Shown here: positions 2,145-30,147 of the stretch, piece after piece
Position numbering within the stretch: position 1 is the stretch's first letter
Layout: every line of letters starts with the position of its first letter
Assembly: GCA_016219445.1 (NCBI GenBank)
Contig: JACRNA010000019.1
Coordinates: 1 to 41,106, forward strand
Direction of reading: 5' to 3'
Length of the DNA: 41,106 nt
From: Candidatus Amesbacteria bacterium
Lineage (GTDB): Bacteria > Patescibacteriota > Microgenomatia > CAZETR01 > Amesbacteraceae
Notes under the pieces: generated by a model
The model's database searches: none
What the model was told of the DNA's origin: nothing
What the model saw: only the letters and a program-made list of their open reading frames with translations
Program-made: the position numbers and the translations under genes

Positions 2145-3281
2145 ATGAAGATTAAAAGACTCTTAGAAAGCCCCATTTCACACCATTTAGACGAGTCAAA
2201 TAAAGGGGTAATAATTTACGGCCCCAGACAGGCTGGAAAAACTACTTTGGTCAATGACATTTTAGCTCAAAAGAGCTGGAAAACACTCATCCTAAATGGA
2301 GACCGCAGAGGTGAATGGTGGGAAACCTTGGTCAGCCGCGATCTATCTAAAATGAAAATTTTATTGGGCGGTTATAACACCATATTTATCGATGAAGCCC
2401 AAAGGATTCCTGAAATAGGTCTGATATTGAAAATTATTTTAGATGAATTTAAGAACTTGAAAGTCATCGCTACAGGATCATCCTCACTTGATTTGGCCAG
2501 TAAAGTCAGTGAACCATTGACAGGAAGAGCAGTAACCTACACCTTATATCCTATATCCATTGCAGAACTTGCGCAAACCCAGACAGCACACGAACTCAAT
2601 GAGAGTTTGGAAAGCCGTCTGATTTTTGGATCTTATCCGGAGTTATTTTCTTTGGACGGACAGACCGCCCAAAGTGACTATTTACGCAATTTGACCAATG
2701 CTTATCTATACAAAGATCTTTTGGAATTTAGCGGTATAAAAAATTCCAACAAAATTCATGATCTATTAAAATTATTGTCTTTCCAAATCGGCTCGCAAGT
2801 TTCTATCTCAGAATTGGGAAATAGTTTGGGCATGAGTAAAGATACAGCTGGACGATATATAGATCTGTTGGAGAAATCTTTCGTCATTTTTAGAAGAAGT
2901 GGATTTAACCGCAACTTACGTAAGGAAGTATCAAAAATGGACAAAATATATTTTTATGATTTGGGGGTCAGAAATACTCTGATTGGAAATTTAAACTTAT
3001 TGACCAATCGAGACGACGCAGGCAAATTGTGGGAAAACTTTTTGGTGCTTGAGCGCATGAAGAGACAAGAATACAAACAGTCTCTCTATAGTCATTACTA
3101 TTGGCGGCTAACAAGTGGAGCCGAACTAGATCTGGTAGAAGAGATTAACGGAAAATTAATTGGGTTTGAATTTAAATTAACCAAAAAAACAACCCGCACT
3201 CCAAAAAGTTGGCTGGAGCAATACGTAGACAGTAAATTCGAAGTCGTAAATCGCACCAACTGGCAAGAATTTGTTATTTAA
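2145..3281 (+). CDS. AAA+ ATPase, AAA_14 / DUF4143 type, with C-terminal PD-(D/E)xK-like domain
   Basis: Walker A GPRQAGKT, Walker B IFIDEAQ, TGSS, LTGR, GSYPE, KIYFYDLG, and C-terminal ELDLV...GFEFK. Stop overlaps the convergent rplO stop. Confidence 0.9.
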   Translation: MKIKRLLESPISHHLDESNKGVIIYGPRQAGKTTLVNDILAQKSWKTLILNGDRRGEWWETLVSRDLSKMKILLGGYNTIFIDEAQRIPEIGLILKIILDEFKNLKVIATGSSSLDLASKVSEPLTGRAVTYTLYPISIAELAQTQTAHELNESLESRLIFGSYPELFSLDGQTAQSDYLRNLTNAYLYKDLLEFSGIKNSNKIHDLLKLLSFQIGSQVSISELGNSLGMSKDTAGRYIDLLEKSFVIFRRSGFNRNLRKEVSKMDKIYFYDLGVRNTLIGNLNLLTNRDDAGKLWENFLVLERMKRQEYKQSLYSHYYWRLTSGAELDLVEEINGKLIGFEFKLTKKTTRTPKSWLEQYVDSKFEVVNRTNWQEFVI

Positions 3282-11571: not shown

Positions 11572-12750
11572 TTATGCCAAGATTTTGGTTACCACACCGG
11601 CTCCGATGGTTCGGCCACCTTCGCGGACAGCAAAACGGTCTCCGACTTCGAGAGCTACCGGGGCAATCAACTTGACAGTCATTTTGGCGTTGTCTCCTGG
11701 CATAACCATTTCTACTCCCGTTGGAAGAGTGGCTTCACCCGTGACATCGGTGGTTCTAATATAAAATTGTGGTCGGTAACCCGAGAAAAATGGAGTGTGT
11801 CGTCCACCCTCTTCTTTTTTCAGGACATAGACCTCAGCTTCAAATTCTGTATGAGGAAGTACCGAGCCAGGCTTGGCCAATACTTGACCACGCTCAACTT
11901 GTTCTTTTTCGACACCACGAAGCAATATTCCGACATTATCTCCAGCCAATCCTTCTTCCAGCTGTTTTCTAAACATTTCGACACCAGTCACTACTGAATT
12001 TTGTGTAGCTTTGATTCCGACTATTTCGATAGCTTCGTTGACTTTGATTCTGCCGCGTTCGATTCTCCCTGTGACTACGGTTCCCCGTCCTTTGATTGAG
12101 AACACGTCTTCGACAGGCATCAAAAATGGCTTTTCCAAATCTCGGATTGGGTCTGGGACATAGGAATCGACTGCGTCCATAAGTTCCAAGATCTTAGCTT
12201 CAGCTTCTGGATCACCTTCAGTGGCTTTGAGTGCTGATCCGCGGATGACCGGAACCTTGTCACCAGGGAATCCATATTTTGTCAAAAGTTCACGGACTTC
12301 CATTTCGACCAGATCCAAAAGTTCTGCTTCGGAAACCATATCGCACTTGTTCATAAAGACAACTACAGCGGGAACATTGACTTGCTTAGCTAGCAAGATG
12401 TGTTCACGGGTTTGAGGCATAGGACCATCGGGAGCTGAAACTACGAGAATGGCTCCGTCCATCTGGGCGGCTCCGGTAATCATGTTTTTGATGTAATCGG
12501 CGTGTCCTGGAGCATCGATGTGAGCATAATGGCGCTTGGCTGTTTCGTATTCTTGGTGAGAAAGATTGATAGTCACTCCACGGGCGCGCTCTTCGGGAGC
12601 AGAATCAATATCTGCATATTTTTTAGCAACAGCCCAGCCTTTTTTGGCGAGGACACAGGTAATAGCAGAAGTCAGAGTAGTCTTGCCGTGATCGACATGA
12701 CCAATTGTTCCGATGTTGACATGGGGCTTGGTGCGCGCAAATGTTGCCAT
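11572..12750 (-). CDS. tuf: Elongation factor Tu
   Basis: [30 protein letters not shown]; start at MATFAR (12750). Confidence 0.99.
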
Positions 12751-12760
12751 GATGTTTTGT

Positions 12761-12789
12761 ATTGTAAACAATAAATTTATTTACTGCAA
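12761..12789 (-). promoter_or_regulatory. tuf promoter TTGCAG-17 bp-TACAAT
   Basis: Minus strand; the -10 lies 10 nt upstream of the ATG at 12750. Confidence 0.65.
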
Positions 12790-12798
12790 GGGGGAAAT

Positions 12799-13314
12799 TT
12801 ATTCCATAGTAAGTTCTGGTCCTTTGCCACGAAATGAATTTACAAAGTTTGTAGCCAATTTTTCATCAAAACTTTTCATCTCTAAAATTCTATTCCAGGC
12901 AGTCAAGACTACTGGAAACTTTATTTGCGGATCAATAGTCACTATCAATTTTTTCATCCCCATCTTATTTCCAAATTCTGACAGCGTTTTTCCCAGTTCA
13001 CACTCTGTTGTCGCGCAATTATAGTGAATCACAATATATCCGTGTTCGAGTGAATGAATTAATTTATATTTGTCTTGTGGCGAATTATAAACTCCAGGTT
13101 TTATCCATTCGACATCATGGGGGCCAGAGGTAGGTGGGTATGAATTGTAGACAAACTTATCATTTTCAGTACTTGGCTTATGGTCACGCCCCTGATCATT
13201 GACCACTATTCCTGGCAAATTGGCAATTCTTCGATACATCCAATAACCCAGACCCACAATTACCAAAATTGTCCCAATGACCATTATCAAATTCTTTATT
13301 TTCTTATTCATCAA
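12799..13314 (-). CDS. Membrane-anchored DUF3105-like protein
   Basis: N-terminal TM helix; YNSYPPTSGPH, HSLEHGYIVIHY and LTAW motifs. Confidence 0.85.
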   Translation of the reverse strand: MMNKKIKNLIMVIGTILVIVGLGYWMYRRIANLPGIVVNDQGRDHKPSTENDKFVYNSYPPTSGPHDVEWIKPGVYNSPQDKYKLIHSLEHGYIVIHYNCATTECELGKTLSEFGNKMGMKKLIVTIDPQIKFPVVLTAWNRILEMKSFDEKLATNFVNSFRGKGPELTME

Positions 13315-13535
13315 TTGACGTATTTACTAATTATCTTTGGAAGATCTAGAGTAATTGAATCAAATTTGTTGTCCGGAAGTTTTTTGGATACATCCAAGAT
13401 TTCCATAGAAATTAGTTTATCGCCAGAATAGTCGGCCAAAAAATCCCCACCCAATTCTTCTGTTCGGGTACTATTTTTAGAATCAGAAAATCTGATCATC
13501 ATGGCATCTGATTTTAGATCATATGATATATTCAT
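13311..13535 (-). CDS. DUF2283-like small protein (putative antitoxin)
   Basis: ISYD...DAMMIRF...ADY...ISMEILDVS pattern; TAGAAT lies 9 nt upstream of the ATG. Confidence 0.8.
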   Translation of the reverse strand: MNISYDLKSDAMMIRFSDSKNSTRTEELGGDFLADYSGDKLISMEILDVSKKLPDNKFDSITLDLPKIISKYVN

Positions 13536-13547
13536 AGTCAGTATATT

Positions 13548-13704
13548 CTATACTTTTAACCTAGACTTTGCAAACCAATAAGCAGTAATTACTACTGCCA
13601 TCTTTATCAGTGTAAGTATCAAATCTCATTATGGGAATATCTGGATAGCCTGCCGAGAGACCTGCTGACACGTGGGCCAATGAGTTCATCAAGTTTCCAA
13701 CCAT
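13548..13704 (-). pseudogene. Chimeric remnant: DUF2000-like fragment joined out of frame to a DUF4258-like toxin C-terminus
   Basis: 13704-13561 encodes MVGNLMNSLAHVSAGLSAGYPDIPIMRFDTYTDKDG...; a second frame (13601-13548) encodes AVVITAYWFAKSRLKV*, resembling the end of toxins found upstream of DUF2283 genes. Family names are from recall. Confidence 0.45.
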
Positions 13705-13786
13705 GTCTTTATTTTATCATCTTTTTTAAACGACAGAGTTTACGCACGTGCGCGTTGAATGTAAAAATAAAGTATCAAACCAGATC

Positions 13787-13805
13787 AAAAAGGCGTGGCC
13801 TTTTT
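13787..13805. repeat. Palindrome family B, copy 1: AAAAAGGC-GTG-GCCTTTTT
   Basis: 8-bp arms with a 3-nt loop; 17 nt recur exactly at 15142. Confidence 0.85.
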
Positions 13806-13818
13806 AAGCACCTTAATA

Positions 13819-13874
13819 TTGACAATACGTGCGATATTATTTAAAATAAAGGACGTAATGTTACATTACGTCCT
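13819..13874 (+). promoter_or_regulatory. Promoter TTGACA-17 bp-TAAAAT plus an 11-bp perfect inverted repeat (operator or hairpin)
   Basis: TTGACA 13819-13824, TAAAAT 13842-13847, AGGACGTAATG-TTA-CATTACGTCCT 13850-13874. Confidence 0.75.
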
Positions 13875-13880
13875 AAATAT

Positions 13881-15125
13881 ATGAACATATCAGACCAATT
13901 GCGTCTCCAGAATCCTTGGTGGACTGATCCAAATTATCAACCTACCGAAGCTCGCCTACCAAAACGAGAGCTATTTACGCAATTAATACACGATACTACC
14001 ACCCTAAAACAGATGATAAGTTTGACGGGGATGCGCCGAACTGGCAAAAGTACTTTAATTCGTCAAATAATTGCCAGTTTATTGGCTAATACCCCAGTAA
14101 TTTCAATCATGTATTTTTCTTTTGATGAACCAACCGTGCGCGAAGAGAAAGATACACTGGAAAAATTACTCACAGTTTATATACAAAATATATTGCATAA
14201 GCAAATCCATGAAATTAGTGAGACTTGTTACATCTTTTTGGATGAGATTCAACTTGTGCCATATTGGCAAGATATTCTTAAACGTTATTATGATCTAAGT
14301 CAGCACCTAAAATTTGTGCTCACAGGTTCTTCGAGTCTCTTTTTACGTACTAAATCCAAAGAGAGTTTGGCTGGACGGATATTTGAAAAACAATTGCCTC
14401 CATTATCCTATATGGAATATCAAACCCTTTTATCAAAAGGCTCATTTGATGAATATTTAGATTTTGGAGGGTTCCCAGAACTATTGGAACTGAATGACAT
14501 TTCTAAAAAGAGAGAGTATCTGAAATACTGGATAATTGGCAAAATTTTGGAAATAGATTTACCAAACCTCGGTGGGGTACGTTTAGTGGCCGAGTTTGAA
14601 CGTTTATTCTGGTCGCTACTGCCAAACACAAGTCAAATTATTCATTTTCCTAAATTGGGAGCTGAATTAGGAATCAAAAGAAATACTTTATTTAGGTATT
14701 TATCTTTATTACAAGGGTCTTTACTTATTAATGGCGTAGCGAATATTGCGGGCAGCTTCCGTTCTACCAGTCGAACATTACGCAAGCTTTATCCAGCCAG
14801 TCCAAACTTTTTAGCACTGTCACCCACTGAGTCGACTCCCGGAGCTCAAGCTGAGACATATGTTGCTCAAACTTTAATCAATAAATTTGGCACAGTCAAT
14901 TTGTATCACAAACGGGAAAAAGAAGTGGATTTTGTTTTGCCCGAGCAAAAAATGGCCATTGAAGTTAAATGCCAAAATACAATTCACAAAGAAGATTATA
15001 AATTTTTGATGCAATTTACCAAGGAAAAGAATTATCAACCACTTCTAATCACCAAATATCCAATTGTAGAATCTTTGCCTGTTCCAACTGTGGAATTATC
15101 GAAAATAGAAGAATATTTTAAATAA
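13881..15125 (+). CDS. AAA+ ATPase, AAA_14 / DUF4143 type
   Basis: QNPWW start, GMRRTGKS, IFLDEIQ, TGSS, ESLAGR, GGFPE, and C-terminal EVDFV...AIEVK. Confidence 0.9.
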   Translation: MNISDQLRLQNPWWTDPNYQPTEARLPKRELFTQLIHDTTTLKQMISLTGMRRTGKSTLIRQIIASLLANTPVISIMYFSFDEPTVREEKDTLEKLLTVYIQNILHKQIHEISETCYIFLDEIQLVPYWQDILKRYYDLSQHLKFVLTGSSSLFLRTKSKESLAGRIFEKQLPPLSYMEYQTLLSKGSFDEYLDFGGFPELLELNDISKKREYLKYWIIGKILEIDLPNLGGVRLVAEFERLFWSLLPNTSQIIHFPKLGAELGIKRNTLFRYLSLLQGSLLINGVANIAGSFRSTSRTLRKLYPASPNFLALSPTESTPGAQAETYVAQTLINKFGTVNLYHKREKEVDFVLPEQKMAIEVKCQNTIHKEDYKFLMQFTKEKNYQPLLITKYPIVESLPVPTVELSKIEEYFK

Positions 15126-15141
15126 GGCTAAAAAGAGGTTT

Positions 15142-15158
15142 AAAAAGGCGTGGCCTTT
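15142..15158. repeat. Palindrome family B, copy 2: AAAAAGGCGTGGCCTTT
   Basis: Exact 17-nt direct copy of 13787-13803, 16 nt after the ATPase stop. Confidence 0.85.
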
Positions 15159-15175
15159 CAAAAGACGATGTTGCC

Positions 15176-15207
15176 TTGACAACAACAACAACAACAACAA
15201 CTAACAT
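15176..15207 (+). promoter_or_regulatory. Promoter-like TTGACA-20 bp-TAACAT whose spacer is a perfect (AAC)7 tract
   Basis: TTGACA 15176-15181, (AAC)7 15181-15201, TAACAT 15202-15207, then 6 nt and ATG 15214. Confidence 0.6.
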
Positions 15208-15213
15208 GGAGCC

Positions 15214-15459
15214 ATGCCTACAGAAAAAGTTATTATACTTAATCCTGCTGATATTGACCTGAGAGGAGAAAGAGCTGTATCTTATTATAATTACGCTGAA
15301 TTACTACAAGATATTGTTGACAGTTCGATTGTTCAAGAACCAAATACCGCTGCAACTAAGGACAACATCAAACGGATTTATAAGGTTCTGTGTAAGGCAC
15401 GAAAACAATCTGGAAAAGCTGTGTTGAGGATGTTTGCTAATACTGGAGTAGGTTTGTAG
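15214..15459 (+). CDS. Hypothetical 81-aa protein
   Basis: ORF fills the gap up to the fusA stop (1-nt gap, convergent) and has a promoter-like element at leaderless spacing; no recognised family. Confidence 0.6.
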   Translation: MPTEKVIILNPADIDLRGERAVSYYNYAELLQDIVDSSIVQEPNTAATKDNIKRIYKVLCKARKQSGKAVLRMFANTGVGL

Positions 15460-15460
15460 T

Positions 15461-17572
15461 TTATGTTTGTGTTTTCCCCGACTTGGCGATTATGCCTTCA
15501 GCAATGTTTCTGGGAACTTCTTCATAGTGAGATGGCTCGATATAGGGATTAGCCCGGCCTTGGGTGATGGAGCGCAATTTGGTAGTATAGCCGGAAAGCT
15601 CGGCCAATGGCACAAAGGCATTGATAATTGTCAATTTGCCACGGGTTTCTGTAGCTGAGATCTGGGCTCTTTTTGAAGACAAGTCACCTATGACATCGCC
15701 CATATATTCCTCAGGGGTAGTCACTTCCACTTTCATGATAGGCTCCAAAAGACACGGATCGGCATTTTTGGAAGCATGTTGAAGGGCCATTGATCCTGCA
15801 ATTTTGAAAGCCATTTCCGAAGAATCGACATCGTGGTATGAACCATCAAACAAGGTAATTTTACAATCTACTAGAGGATAGCCAGCTACTACCCCATTTT
15901 CCATAGCCTCCACAATTCCTTTTTCAATTGGAGTAATAAATTCCGATGGAATCGATCCGCCCTTGATAGCATTGACCCATTCATAGCCAGCTCCACGGGT
16001 TAGAGGCTCGATTTTGATAAAACAATGCCCATATTGACCACGGCCTCCGGATTGCTTGATATATTTTCCTTCACCTTCGGCCAATTTTCGCACTGTTTCT
16101 TTGTAAGCTACTTGGGGAGCACCCGTGGACGCTTCGACTTTAAATTCGCGTTTCATGCGGTCGACAATAATTTCCAAATGCAGCTCGCCCATACCCGCGA
16201 TTATGGTCTGGCCTGTCTCGGGATTGGATTTGATTCGGAAAGTTGGATCTTCATCGGAAAGTTTAGACAGTGCATATCCCATTTTTTCCTGGTCTGATTT
16301 AGTCTTGGGTTCAATAGCCAGAGAGATAACAGGCTCAGGAAAAGTAATAGATTCCAAGACGATTGGATTGTCTTTGTCACAAAGTGTATTGCCAGTCACA
16401 GTATCGCGAAGTCCAACTAAGGTCACAATTTCACCGGCATAAGCTGCGTCTATTTCTTCACGCTTGTTGGCATGCATCAAAAGCATCCGTGAGATCCGCT
16501 CTTCTTTGTCTTTGGTGGCGTTATAAATGGGCTGTCCGGATTTCAGAGTCCCTGAATAAATACGGACATAAGTCAGGCGGCCCACATGAGGATCGGTCTG
16601 AATTTTGAAAGCCAAGCCACAGAAAGGTTGTTCATTAATCGTCTGCCGGACCACTTTTTCACCACTTCTGGGATGGACACCATTGACATGATCGACATCG
16701 ACAGGAGATGGCAAATACTCAACGATGGCATCCAAAAGTGGCTGAACACCTTTGTTGCGTAATGATGCTCCTGCATAGACCGGAACCAATTTGTAAGCAA
16801 TAACCGCCTTGCGAAGAGCAATTTTTAATTCAGTTATTGTTGGCTCTTCGCCATTGAGGAATTTTTCCAAAAGGACATCGTCAGTTTCACAGATCTGTTC
16901 AATTAGTTTTGTTCTCCAAGTTTCGACAACGTCTAACATATCAGCCGGAACTTCTTCTTCGGTAAACTTAGCTCCAGTTTCATCACCGTGCCAAATAATG
17001 GCTTTTCTTTCCAAAAGTAAAACTACCCCCTTAAACAAATTTTCGGCTCCTATAGGGTAAGCCATGACAGCAGGATTGGCTCCCAATCTTTCGATGACAG
17101 CTTTAATTGTGCCTTCAAAATTGGCTCCAAGTTTATCAACTTTGTTTACAAAGATAATACGGGGAACTTTGTATTTATCAGCCTGTCTCCAAACTGTTTC
17201 AGTTTGTGACTGAACTGTTTCCTCAGCATCGAGAATTGTAACGGCGCCATCGAGAACACGCAGTGAGCGCTCGACTTCAGCAGTAAAATCGACGTGTCCT
17301 GGAGTATCGATCAGATTGATGCGCACACCCTTCCAAAAAGTTGTTGTGGCGGCGGAAACAATAGTAATCCCTCTTTCTTTTTCTTGTTCCATCCAGTCCA
17401 TTTGGGTATCGCCCTCATCAATATCGCCAATTTTGTAACTTTTACCGGTATAAAATAATATTCTTTCTGATGTCGTGGTTTTTCCGGCGTCAATATGGGC
17501 AATTATGCCAATATTCCGCACCCTGTCGAGCGGTATAGTCCTGTTAGTCGTTTTAATGTCACTTGCAGCCAT
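15461..17572 (-). CDS. fusA: Elongation factor G
   Basis: RNIGIIAHIDAGKTT, DWMEQEKERGITI, DTPGHVDF, GMGELHL, QSGGRGQYGH, HDVDSSEMAF. Confidence 0.99.
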   Translation of the reverse strand: MAASDIKTTNRTIPLDRVRNIGIIAHIDAGKTTTSERILFYTGKSYKIGDIDEGDTQMDWMEQEKERGITIVSAATTTFWKGVRINLIDTPGHVDFTAEVERSLRVLDGAVTILDAEETVQSQTETVWRQADKYKVPRIIFVNKVDKLGANFEGTIKAVIERLGANPAVMAYPIGAENLFKGVVLLLERKAIIWHGDETGAKFTEEEVPADMLDVVETWRTKLIEQICETDDVLLEKFLNGEEPTITELKIALRKAVIAYKLVPVYAGASLRNKGVQPLLDAIVEYLPSPVDVDHVNGVHPRSGEKVVRQTINEQPFCGLAFKIQTDPHVGRLTYVRIYSGTLKSGQPIYNATKDKEERISRMLLMHANKREEIDAAYAGEIVTLVGLRDTVTGNTLCDKDNPIVLESITFPEPVISLAIEPKTKSDQEKMGYALSKLSDEDPTFRIKSNPETGQTIIAGMGELHLEIIVDRMKREFKVEASTGAPQVAYKETVRKLAEGEGKYIKQSGGRGQYGHCFIKIEPLTRGAGYEWVNAIKGGSIPSEFITPIEKGIVEAMENGVVAGYPLVDCKITLFDGSYHDVDSSEMAFKIAGSMALQHASKNADPCLLEPIMKVEVTTPEEYMGDVIGDLSSKRAQISATETRGKLTIINAFVPLAELSGYTTKLRSITQGRANPYIEPSHYEEVPRNIAEGIIAKSGKTQT

Positions 17573-24564: not shown

Positions 24565-24782
24565 TTAAATCCAGCTTTTTTGGGATTTGGCTATTTCGGA
24601 GGCCGCTTTCATGGCCTCTTTGCCACTTCCGGATTCACTGCGGTAAGCGGCAAATCCTTCTCTGACCATCGTCTCATTAATGAGTTTTCCGTCAACATAA
24701 ACGAGAGCCACGATCCGACCAAATTTGTCAACCACGGGTTCTTTAATTTGAACTTGTCGCTCGCCAGTCCTAACTTTTTCAT
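24565..24782 (-). pseudogene. Thermonuclease-family remnant (internal deletion and frameshift)
   Basis: One frame reads ...EPVVDKFGRIVALVYVDGKLINETMVREGFAAY...AASEIAKSQK (SNase C-terminal half) without a start; TG-A-TAAAAT-6 nt-ATG (24782, MKKLGL) lies in another frame. Confidence 0.7.
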
Positions 24783-24800
24783 TTTTTTATTTTATCATTT

Positions 24801-24836
24801 CCCAAATCTCCCCAATTACCCTAATCACCCTAATTA
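24801..24836 (+). repeat. Four degenerate tandem nonamers
   Basis: CCCAAATCT CCCCAATTA CCCTAATCA CCCTAATTA, ending 1 nt before palindrome A copy 1. Confidence 0.75.
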
Positions 24837-24837
24837 C

Positions 24838-24865
24838 TTTGCAAGAGGTCCTCTTGCAAATGGCT
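24838..24865. repeat. REP-like palindrome family A, copy 1
   Basis: TTTGCAAGAGG-T-CCTCTTGCAAA followed by TGGCT; perfect 11-bp arms. Confidence 0.92.
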
Positions 24866-24910
24866 GTGTTACGTCATTTATTGTAAATATAGTATTGTGG
24901 AAAGAAAATA

Positions 24911-24933
24911 TGTTCCACCTAAGAGGTGGAACA
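24911..24933. repeat. Palindrome C: TGTTCCACCT-AAG-AGGTGGAACA
   Basis: Perfect 10-bp arms, 23 nt in total, single copy in the window. Confidence 0.75.
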
Positions 24934-24982
24934 ATAAGAGCTTGCAAGTGGGTATTACACCATATAAAATAAAAAATATAAT

Positions 24983-25351
24983 ATGACAAATATTGAAAAA
25001 TTGGAAAAAGAAATAGAGTTATTGAAGCTTCGTAACCTACGGATTGAGAAGGACAAACTTTGGGAGACAAGTTATACCCGCCGATTATTGATCGCAGTCT
25101 TTACTTTCTTGTCTATTGGAATATACATGTGGGCAATTGGTATTGACCGCCCGTGGCTCAATGCCATCGTCCCCACTGTCGGATTTACTTTGTCTACATT
25201 GAGCTTACCTTGGTTTAAGGAACTTTGGCATAGAATGCGTCTTTGGTTTAAAGATAGAGAAATTATGGAAGCTATTAGAATCGGTGAAGAAGAAGAAAAG
25301 GCAGGAAAATTAAAAACATTGTCCAAAGATTTACATGAATTATTGGAATAA
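24983..25351 (+). CDS. Small two-TM membrane protein with a charged antitoxin-like tail
   Basis: RNLRIEKDKLWETS...TM...PWLNAIVP...LSTLSLP, then EIMEAIRIGEEEEKAGKLKTL; promoter TTGCAA(24942)-17-TAAAAT(24965). Confidence 0.75.
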   Translation: MTNIEKLEKEIELLKLRNLRIEKDKLWETSYTRRLLIAVFTFLSIGIYMWAIGIDRPWLNAIVPTVGFTLSTLSLPWFKELWHRMRLWFKDREIMEAIRIGEEEEKAGKLKTLSKDLHELLE

Positions 25352-29359: not shown

Positions 29360-29378
29360 ACTATAAGGACGGTCGAGA

Positions 29379-29409
29379 TTTGCAAGAGGATCTCTTGCAA
29401 ACGGCTATA
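29379..29409. repeat. REP-like palindrome family A, copy 2 (at the transposase 3' end)
   Basis: TTTGCAAGAGG-A-TCTCTTGCAAA followed by CGGCTATA; the transposase stop codon lies in this tail. Confidence 0.92.
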
Positions 29410-30082
29410 ATTCGCCATTAATATCAATAGCTATGTCTGTCAGATACTCAGGATCAATAGACATCCCCATAAAATTTCGGTAAGTAAATTTCTGCTTGGA
29501 AAGCGAAAAATAATCTAAAATGTGGTTGGTCTTGATCCAATTGGTTTTTCTTTCTCCAAGATATTCCGGAAGCGATGATGGCAACGATAAACTTGATGCT
29601 TTAATTGGGTTATTGTGTATATAGCGGGACAGATGGAGAAGTTGTTCCTCGGACTGGACCAAGACAGCTTTATATACATCTTGAAACAAGACTCCCTTTC
29701 TTTTGTACTTACGATTGAAATACATTGCATATCGAGTACCAAGTGAATTTGCAAAACTATTGATCACAACTTCTCTTTGCTGAATTAAAAGATGAAAATG
29801 ATTTGGCATTAAGGCATAGCACACTAAGTCTAAATCTTCGGAATAATTTTTGAGTTTTAATAATTTTAAAGCTTTATCTTTTTCTTTTGGAGTTGAATTT
29901 GGAGAAGAAAGCACCTCCTCTAGGTTATCTATGTCCACTGGTGACAAATATGTCTGTAGATAAGACAGAAAAACAGAATAATCCTGCTCGTCCATAAATA
30001 TCTTCCTTTGTTCAACCCCACGGTTGTAAATATGGTAATAAGAATTGGGAATATAATCTTTAACCGAGTTCCTTGAAGCCAT
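29405..30082 (-). mobile_element. HUH Y1 tyrosine transposase, RAYT / IS200-like
   Basis: YYHIYNRG...IF...DY, YALMPNHFHLL (HUH), YFNRKY.R.G.LFQ..YK, YIHNNP (catalytic Tyr plus the NP motif typical of RAYTs); flanked by identical hairpins. Confidence 0.92.
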
Positions 30083-30109
30083 ACTTTATCTTAGGATTTT
30101 GTTTTCACC

Positions 30110-30147
30110 TTTGCAAGAGGACCTCTTGCAAATGGCTATATATAGCC
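30110..30147. repeat. REP-like palindrome family A, copy 3 (upstream of the transposase)
   Basis: TTTGCAAGAGG-A-CCTCTTGCAAA followed by TGGCTATATATAGCC, whose GGCTATATATAGCC part is itself palindromic. Confidence 0.92.

Follow-up and report, generated by a model that had tools for sequence, protein, structure and literature searches.

Two identical hairpins around a candidate defense ATPase gene of an Amesbacteria genome probably belong to a lineage-wide REP family

Introduction

Contig JACRNA010000019.1 of a Candidatus Amesbacteria bacterium (assembly GCA_016219445.1), 41,106 nucleotides (nt) in length, carries a predicted AAA+ ATPase gene with a DUF4143 domain that is enclosed by two identical short hairpins. 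A sequence-only reading of this DNA had taken the hairpins for the borders of a mobile single-gene cassette, handled by HUH enzymes in an undescribed, integron-like shuffling system. Here we report that the two hairpins are probably members of a lineage-wide family of repetitive extragenic palindromic (REP) elements, situated in adjacent gaps beside an apparently autonomous gene of the candidate defense type PDC-S01, and that an integron-like system for this ATPase gene is not supported. In place of an undescribed system, the hairpins would be ordinary REP copies with a transposase family of their own. Throughout, the window denotes this entire contig, which is contig C19 of the source assembly (810 kb in 47 contigs, 39% G+C); labels of the form Gnnn stand for genomes (G000 is the source, the others are relatives), C for a contig and L for an extracted locus.

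The significance of this reading lies in the host. It documents REP elements together with their REP-associated tyrosine transposases (RAYTs) in a lineage of Patescibacteria with a genome of about 0.8 Mb, in the form of several systems per genome that are conserved across genera, a subject for which no treatment was found in the literature searched.

The Hairpin Pair and Its Repeat Family

The 17-mer AAAAAGGCGTGGCCTTT occurs exactly twice in the window, both times on the forward strand, at 13787-13803 and 15142-15158. The first copy (AAAAAGGC-GTG-GCCTTTTT, 13787-13805, +) forms a perfect 8-bp stem with a 3-nt loop and ends in T5; the second (15142-15158, +) consists of the same 17 nt and has a stem of only 6 bp around a 3-nt loop. 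Such a pair is rarely produced by shuffling, given that the 15-nt core with up to two mismatches is expected 0.11 times and reached two occurrences in 2 of 100 shuffles, and AAAGGC-N3-GCCTTT with up to one mismatch is expected 0.15 times and reached two in none of 100. The layout that had been described from the letters alone is accurate in its particulars: copy 1 ends 13 nt before the -35 box, whose TTGACA starts at 13819; copy 2 starts 16 nt past the last base of the stop codon at 15125; and the two enclose the promoter, an operator-like palindrome and the ATPase gene. The likeness between the copies ends at 17 nt, with AT-rich left flanks that agree at 12 of 24 bases (manual count), and these 17 nt match the family consensus found in other genera. 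Probably, the two copies are identical because both conform to this consensus, and not through target duplication or as matched cassette ends. As structures the hairpins are modest; copy 1 folds at -7.3 kcal/mol (z -1.3), and copy 2 at -6.3 kcal/mol on the forward and -7.9 kcal/mol on the reverse strand, no better than shuffles.

Exact copies of AAAGGC-N3-GCCTTT number 61 over eight genomes (17 in G023, 13 in G005, nine each in G002 and G003, five in G004, three each in G000 and G001, and two in G014), against zero to two per genome for a reversed control pattern, and at least one exact copy is found in 16 of the 41 genomes searched. The copies are mainly extragenic, with four intragenic ones seen. 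The source genome holds, apart from the pair, a third 15-nt core inside a coding sequence (CDS) at C4:29803-29817 and a one-mismatch copy at C9:704-718. In many aligned copies the likeness extends past the stem, one flank reading ..AGATCAA and the opposite one CAAAGTTATCCACA or TGAGGCTAA, and the same flank accompanies a stem variant, GAAGGG-CGTCC-CCCTTC, of which G000 has about six copies. The two variants exchange at orthologous sites: 5' of the ATPase gene the first stem stands in G000 and the second in G001 (13787-13805 versus L009:560-585), and after rpsK the situation is reversed, with the second stem in G000 and the first in G001 (C38:211-227 versus L071:1987-2001). The nine bases that end the conserved flank equal what we take to be the DnaA-box consensus; this reading of the flank was set aside, as the 9-mer occurs 19 times in the genome and adjoins a hairpin at only five of these sites.

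The distribution of the family extends well beyond accessory genes. Copies follow rpsK (L071; G000:C38:227), the rpsI operon in three genomes (L072, L074 and L083, with a variant copy at G000:C5:18769), and open reading frames (ORFs) that resemble GatB (L149) and ProRS (L078), the latter two named by eye from their N-termini; one copy lies 5' of glyS. The sequence-only reading had itself named the presence of the motif after core genes as an observation that would refute the cassette, and such copies are what the genomes contain. Among 21 extragenic copies with ORFs on both sides, classified by eye from raw ORF tables, seven lie between convergent, ten between unidirectional and four between divergent ORFs. 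REPs elsewhere are placed mostly between unidirectional and convergent ORFs in those passages of one study that concern their location (PMC3733652).

The copy inside a CDS of C4 merits separate mention. It is a 23-nt match to the REP consensus that is read in frame (..NLKGVAFLKYDE..) within the gene of a membrane-anchored 186-amino-acid (aa) protein (CDS 29533-30093), and it is conserved in the G002 and G003 orthologs; it may be either an intragenic REP or a convergent sequence.

The Cognate Transposases

The sequence-only reading had tied the palindrome, as a REP-type element, to HUH (Y1) enzymes and had predicted that copies of the motif would flank a second RAYT gene, and both expectations were borne out: RAYT genes are flanked by the palindrome in four genomes. 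The 230-aa ORF in G003:C3 matches Pfam Y1_Tnp (E 8.6e-11, 42.5 bits against a cut-off of 23) and has the palindrome at both ends; its orthologs in G005:C61 (69% identity) and G023:C2 (67%) are flanked likewise. The source genome has its own representative at G000:C9:40986-41669, which is 63% identical to the G003 protein and is flanked, in inverted orientation, by the variant stem GAAGGG-CGTCC-CCCTTC. A 54% relative in a Candidatus Collierbacteria record is bordered by doublets of AAAGGCCCGGCCTTT.

In its 0.81 Mb, G000 contains six RAYT-like genes, and its palindromes fall, by our own grouping, into at least five families. One such gene is in the window, where the ORF at 29405-30082 matches Pfam Y1_Tnp with 40.7 bits against the cut-off of 23 and is flanked by copies of a TTTGCAAGAGG.CCTCTTGCAAA family (29378-29401 and 30110-30132), a third copy of which lies at 24838. 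A second further family in the window is represented by TGTTCCACCTAAGAGGTGGAACA at 24911, within the same stretch (24838-24933) as that third copy, and it also flanks another RAYT-like ORF, C40:5706-6383. Pfam gave no match for the ORFs at 24580-25351.

Inside the RAYT genes of this clade, at approximately nt +443 to +486 of the CDS, the palindrome that flanks each gene recurs in frame. The internal copy sits in a variable linker between ..YIH.NP.. and ..Y(P).SSY.., and its sequence follows that of the flanking copies, also across lineages with widely different palindromes; some genes have another copy at about +146 or +187. Examples are G000:C9 (about 41156-41184), where 29 nt of hairpin and conserved flank recur with one change in the flank and code for ..KGVPLQSYPH.., and loci L081, L143, L144, L152, L154, L155, L158, L161, L162 and L164. 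We know of no description of in-frame palindrome copies inside RAYT genes, although no literature search was aimed at this point.

These elements suggest a simple route by which the pair at the ATPase may have come about. The cognate Y1 (HUH) RAYT encoded on another contig, at G000:C9:40986-41669, would act on the folded single strand to make and maintain copies, a step that we infer by analogy with other REP/RAYT systems; the copies would accumulate in tolerated intergenic gaps; and two of them would have landed in neighboring gaps of the accessory islet between fusA and tuf in which the ATPase gene lies. A side effect of these hairpins, which are weak, may be some reduction of read-through from either direction.

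The ATPase Gene and Its Promoter

The ATPase gene (13881-15125, +) encodes a 414-aa protein with matches above the Pfam cut-offs to AAA_14 (E 3.2e-33, 114.9 bits) and DUF4143 (E 6.9e-16, 58.8 bits), and it matches the PADLOC profile for the candidate defense gene PDC-S01 with an E value of 6.5e-56. Near the C-terminus an E-V-D ... E-V-K stretch is visible, which we take to be a PD-(D/E)XK-type motif. DUF4143/COG1373 has been placed in the PD-(D/E)XK superfamily (PMC3424549), and PDC-S01 figures, in the relevant portions of a recent account (PMC12988326), as a widespread candidate single-gene defense with an ATPase fused to a PD-(D/E)XK domain and a predicted defense role. Our gene conforms to this type in its profile match, its AAA_14 plus DUF4143 architecture, its patchy presence in relatives and its multiple copies, and the protein itself shows nothing unusual. 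Approximately 12 AAA_14/DUF4143 paralogs of the PDC-S01 type are present in the 0.81-Mb source genome, and relatives have from none to about 13. Orthologs at E <= 1e-70 are found in only 3 of 27 genomes in a family-wide search, and a metagenome search for close orthologs returned as its best hit a 51% match on a 1.7-kb contig (L084), too distant for a comparison of occupied and empty sites.

A sigma-70-like promoter (TTGACA-17-TAAAAT, 13819-13847, +, 11 of 12 positions matching) precedes the gene, and its TTGACA is kept 5' of the orthologs in G001, G005, G039 and L084. Between promoter and ATG lies a perfect 25-nt palindrome with an 11-bp stem (13850-13874, +), which folds at -13.6 kcal/mol (z -4.9); it is kept in G001 with a compensatory change, its core is identical in the 53% ortholog of G005, and TGTAACA-type motifs also occur in G039, L084 and two paralogs. 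We regard it as a candidate operator or hairpin of the 5' untranslated region. A TGTAACA/TGTTACA palindrome or half-site stands between promoter and start in L009, L010, L011, L084, L070 and L150, a range that spans orthologs down to 46% identity and two distant paralogs; this recurrence suggests a shared operator, possibly for the DNA-binding part of the protein itself. Judged by its sequence features, the gene is a predicted autonomous PDC-S01 module with its own promoter, a conserved palindrome and a nuclease-like tail.

The paralogs include some in tandem (C4:21032-23348) and another in the window at 2145-3281. The paralog at C29:13642-14886 (-), which has its own TTGACA promoter, interrupts a Trbp111-like tRNA-binding-domain gene 3' of trpS (L128, C29:13547-14973) that is intact (105 aa) and without the ATPase in G001 and G003. 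It is flanked by an exact 32-nt direct repeat that corresponds to the 3' end of the broken gene, with none longer beside any of the 609 ORFs tested, and the reading frame of the ATPase continues into target-derived sequence.

The Hairpins Do Not Travel with the Gene

If the hairpins delimited a mobile ATPase cassette, as had been proposed, they should accompany the gene; the comparisons show that promoter and 25-nt palindrome stay with it and the hairpins do not. The ortholog at the same locus of G001 (88%) has only the 5' hairpin, with the variant stem, and lacks both the second hairpin and the 81-aa ORF that follows it in G000; its stop codon overlaps that of fusA by 8 nt. The orthologs in G005 (53%), G039 (46%) and the metagenome contig L084 (51%) have no hairpins, and the 11 other complete paralogs in G000 have no hairpin of at least 6 bp in their 250-nt flanks. 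Moreover, G000 and G001 have in common a block that runs from 13732 to the ATPase stop and takes in about 55 nt to the left of hairpin 1. A perfect 10-nt palindrome, CGCACGTGCG (13743-13752), falls within these 55 nt.

Evidence of movement was likewise not found. An all-against-all BLAST of ORFs in REP loci revealed no cargo present with its hairpins at two places, there is no integrase in the fusA-tuf interval, and the cognate RAYT is on another contig. By flank, the orientation of pairs is mixed, being inverted in G002:C28 and direct elsewhere. The stretch is present in three DNA runs from one groundwater study, one of which may be its source, and in no listed RNA run. Assembled contigs of these DNA runs, in which rare forms would be invisible, gave neither a join across the ATPase nor a circle; public contigs break at the (ACA)n run at 15171-15210. 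Nor does any of 14 fusA-tuf intervals from other genera present the empty site with a single hairpin that the cassette proposal had led one to look for. Two candidate comparisons were rejected. G002 has copies on both sides of the interval but cannot serve as an empty site, since only 23 nt separate one hairpin location from the end of its contig, the other adjoins a scaffold gap of 100 N, and the flanks are unlike those of G000; and G001:C74 versus G000:C43, considered as a second pair with and without an ATPase, share a 454-nt block that misses both hairpins in a rearranged region.

Weighing the Alternatives

Several observations sit uneasily with a reading in which REP copies simply came to rest beside the gene. 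G000 has three extragenic copies with this stem (13789, 15144 and, with one mismatch, C9:704), and the first two occupy neighboring gaps; by rough estimate over about 750 gaps this has a probability below 1% by chance, so the placement is not random. The sequence-only reading had asked whether copies pair around accessory genes, and often they do: for 28 of the 61 exact copies the nearest other copy is no more than 2.5 kb away, against about three expected (own arithmetic), seven of the 28 belonging to RAYT genes, and at nine or more sites a pair encloses one or two accessory ORFs, among them AbiEii in G002:C73 and unknown ORFs in G001:C74, G002:C28, G003:C28, G005:C13 and G005:C42. In G003:C28 a 220-aa ORF of unknown family is flanked by a 77-nt repeat, about 88% alike, that includes the hairpin and a 62-nt flank (L074 927-1003 and 2037-2113), and one copy is present at the orthologous site downstream of rpsI in G001 and G002. 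Three independent PDC-S01 genes (the G000/G001 locus, G001:C74 and G023:C8) have a copy 70-95 nt before the ATG. On the side of the enzymes, NCBIfam REP_Tyr_transpos is the best match yet stays below its cut-off of 80 (41 bits for G000:C9, 43.8 for 29405-30082), and action of the RAYTs on these hairpins is presumed. The passages of PMC3733652 that define REP elements give as a hallmark a conserved GTAG (or CGTC) that borders the palindrome on one side; no GTAG stands beside the stems in 27 aligned copies, and CGTC occurs only within the loop or stem of some variants.

The clustering bears on the cassette idea of the sequence-only reading, in which the same-strand hairpins would be ends like those of IS200/IS605 elements, and a RAYT would move the gene in trans to other REP sites to build integron-like arrays. 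Both copies at the ATPase are indeed on the same strand with the same loop, pairs do bracket accessory ORFs, the equivalent G002 interval has hairpin copies with other cargo (AbiEii), the direct repeat around one ORF in G003:C28 contrasts with the single copy in G001 and G002, and arrays of three to four same-orientation copies exist in G005:C13 and G005:C42. We nevertheless hold this explanation to be unlikely. IS200/IS605 elements insert with strand bias, and same-orientation runs are expected from such insertion as well; no cargo was found at two places with its hairpins, ATPase orthologs lack one or both, the block common to G000 and G001 ends away from the hairpins, pair orientation is mixed, and the islet varies also in genera without the repeat. 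A different origin of the 17-nt direct repeat, exactly at both sides of the module, would be insertion of the ATPase into an existing REP with duplication of that REP, followed by a deletion that removed the right copy from G001. We consider this a very remote prospect, even with the 8-nt overlap of ATPase and fusA stops in G001, which resembles a deletion scar, and the precedent of the C29 paralog, which interrupted a conserved gene and is flanked by the 32-nt direct repeat. That repeat is not adjacent to the insertion point in the intact gene, so it is no simple staggered-cut duplication; the identity of the two hairpins stops at the family consensus; and no empty site appeared in the G001 and G002 comparisons or in the 14 intervals of other genera. 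The approximately 55 nt left of copy 1 that accompany the ATPase in G001 are neutral in this respect.

It is also improbable that the hairpins are kept for a function of their own, as bidirectional intrinsic terminators that shield the ATPase from the opposing DUF2283 and fusA transcripts. The A5 ... T5 frame of copy 1 supplies a T-run on either strand, and a terminator scan lists this copy, on the reverse strand only. Copy 2 is absent from that list; the stems have just three G:C pairs, and the hairpins fold at between -6.3 and -7.9 kcal/mol (one strand of the full 46-nt stretch reaches -10), with z from -1.3 to +0.3, like shuffles. Most copies (17 of 21) are downstream of at least one ORF, but the remaining four lie between divergent starts, where there is nothing to terminate. 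The stem is preserved by changes on both sides between G000 and G001, as selection would have it, but this change is a swap of family variants that also occurs in reverse after rpsK, and replacement fits equally well.

The reading of the hairpins as members of a REP family remains in our view the best explanation, and it leaves room for a further role. Because the copies cluster and often bracket accessory genes, they may serve as hot spots of recombination or insertion, to which we assign a small probability; we are just as doubtful of the broader proposal that REP hairpins and RAYTs act in tiny genomes as exchange sites for accessory genes of defense and toxin-antitoxin type. Were it true, two copies on the same strand could define a segment that is excised and inserted anew at another copy, or that is exchanged by recombination between copies, and REP-punctuated islets such as fusA-tuf would be a single-strand, HUH-based counterpart of integron arrays. 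With 28 of 61 copies against about three expected, the clustering around accessory genes makes REP-associated gene exchange worth testing directly.

Comparison with Known Systems

The closest counterparts are the REP/REPIN and RAYT systems of E. coli, Pseudomonas and Stenotrophomonas, with which the present family shares short, repeated extragenic palindromes with occasional intragenic copies, a gene for a single-domain Y1 transposase with its palindrome on either side, a location mostly in convergent or unidirectional gaps, and conservation over long evolutionary distances within a lineage. It differs in its host, one of the tiny-genome Patescibacteria of the candidate phyla radiation, in having no GTAG end tag but a conserved flank of 12-14 nt, in its 3-17 copies per genome, in the coexistence of six RAYT-like genes with at least five palindrome families, and in the in-frame palindrome inside the RAYT gene.

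The attC sites of integrons are imperfect palindromes between single accessory genes, often with toxin-antitoxin or defense cargo, that act as folded single strands. The hairpins here share the palindromic form and the kind of cargo, and would likewise act as folded single strands; in contrast to integrons, there is no integrase or attI platform, the sites are identical copies of one family instead of being cassette-specific, the gene has its own promoter, and its orthologs do not keep the sites. In IS200/IS605 elements, a Y1 HUH enzyme recognizes subterminal hairpins of a single strand, and in this manner a segment between two hairpins of the same strand might in principle be mobilized. Unlike such "peel and paste" elements (PMC6006769), the segment at the ATPase contains no tnpA, its left and right ends are not distinct, we saw no conserved tetranucleotide for cleavage, and it exists in a single copy.

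The fusA-tuf Islet

The ATPase gene lies in a small, fast-changing accessory islet of defense and toxin-antitoxin genes, whose edges are tuf (EF-Tu, 11572-12771, -) and fusA (EF-G, 15461-17572, -). From the tuf side, the islet holds a DUF3105 gene (171 aa, 12799-13314, -), a DUF2283 gene (74 aa, 13311-13535, -) and a remnant of a DUF4258-like gene (13551-13604, -), followed by the hairpins and the ATPase. The decayed gene noticed at 13.6 kb from sequence alone is therefore real: its last 18 codons match a 78-aa protein of G007 in tblastn (72% over 18 aa, E 1.3e-6), the Pfam DUF4258 match of that protein being weak (E 0.0011, 19.6 bits against a 25-bit cut-off).

In the 19 relatives with both genes on one contig, fusA and tuf are separated by anything from about 55 nt to about 4.2 kb, and the ORFs in this gap differ strongly between genomes. 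Read by eye, they include DUF3105-like, DUF2283/DUF4258-like and hydrolase-like ORFs, and the G003 gap holds other PDC-S01 paralogs. In G002, where fusA and tuf are 99% identical to those of G000, the interval contains AbiEii, other ORFs and three hairpin copies. No copy of AAAGGC-N3-GCCTTT occurs in the 14 intervals of other genera, several of those genomes having no copy at all; since the islet varies in genomes without this repeat, gene turnover there is independent of it. The 3' end of fusA diverges after ..KSGK among G000, G001, G003 and G007, and these divergent ends within a genus indicate that rearrangements extend to the very end of fusA. A universally tight gene junction has thus turned into a hot spot of gene turnover in this family, and the islet offers a convenient natural locus in which to study the gain and loss of defense genes in streamlined genomes.

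Between hairpin 2 and the fusA stop is an 81-aa orphan ORF (15214-15459, +) with no Pfam or PADLOC match. A search of 40 relatives found nothing like it, and the DNA of G001-G003 and G007 has no match either; it may be no gene at all. This ORF is preceded by a promoter-like TTGACA with an (ACA)n run (15176-15207, +), similar to an element 5' of fusA (17829-17801, -). This element occurs four times in G000, the other two at C4:27684 and C29:12841. The (ACA)n run at 15176 is one unit longer, which results in a 20-nt spacer to the nearest -10-like hexamer.

Other Observations in the Source Genome

The 528-aa ORF at C13:4276-5862 (L132) has an exact 17-nt direct repeat, AGAGGCTTTACCTTAAT, in its 300-nt flanks, and it is among just five ORFs of G000 with a flanking repeat of at least 15 nt. 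Elsewhere, at C29:9684-12815 (-), a 1043-aa FtsH-like ORF contains a long insertion after the P-loop lysine, with C at its start and HN before T, which, on inspection of the translation by eye, looks like an intein.

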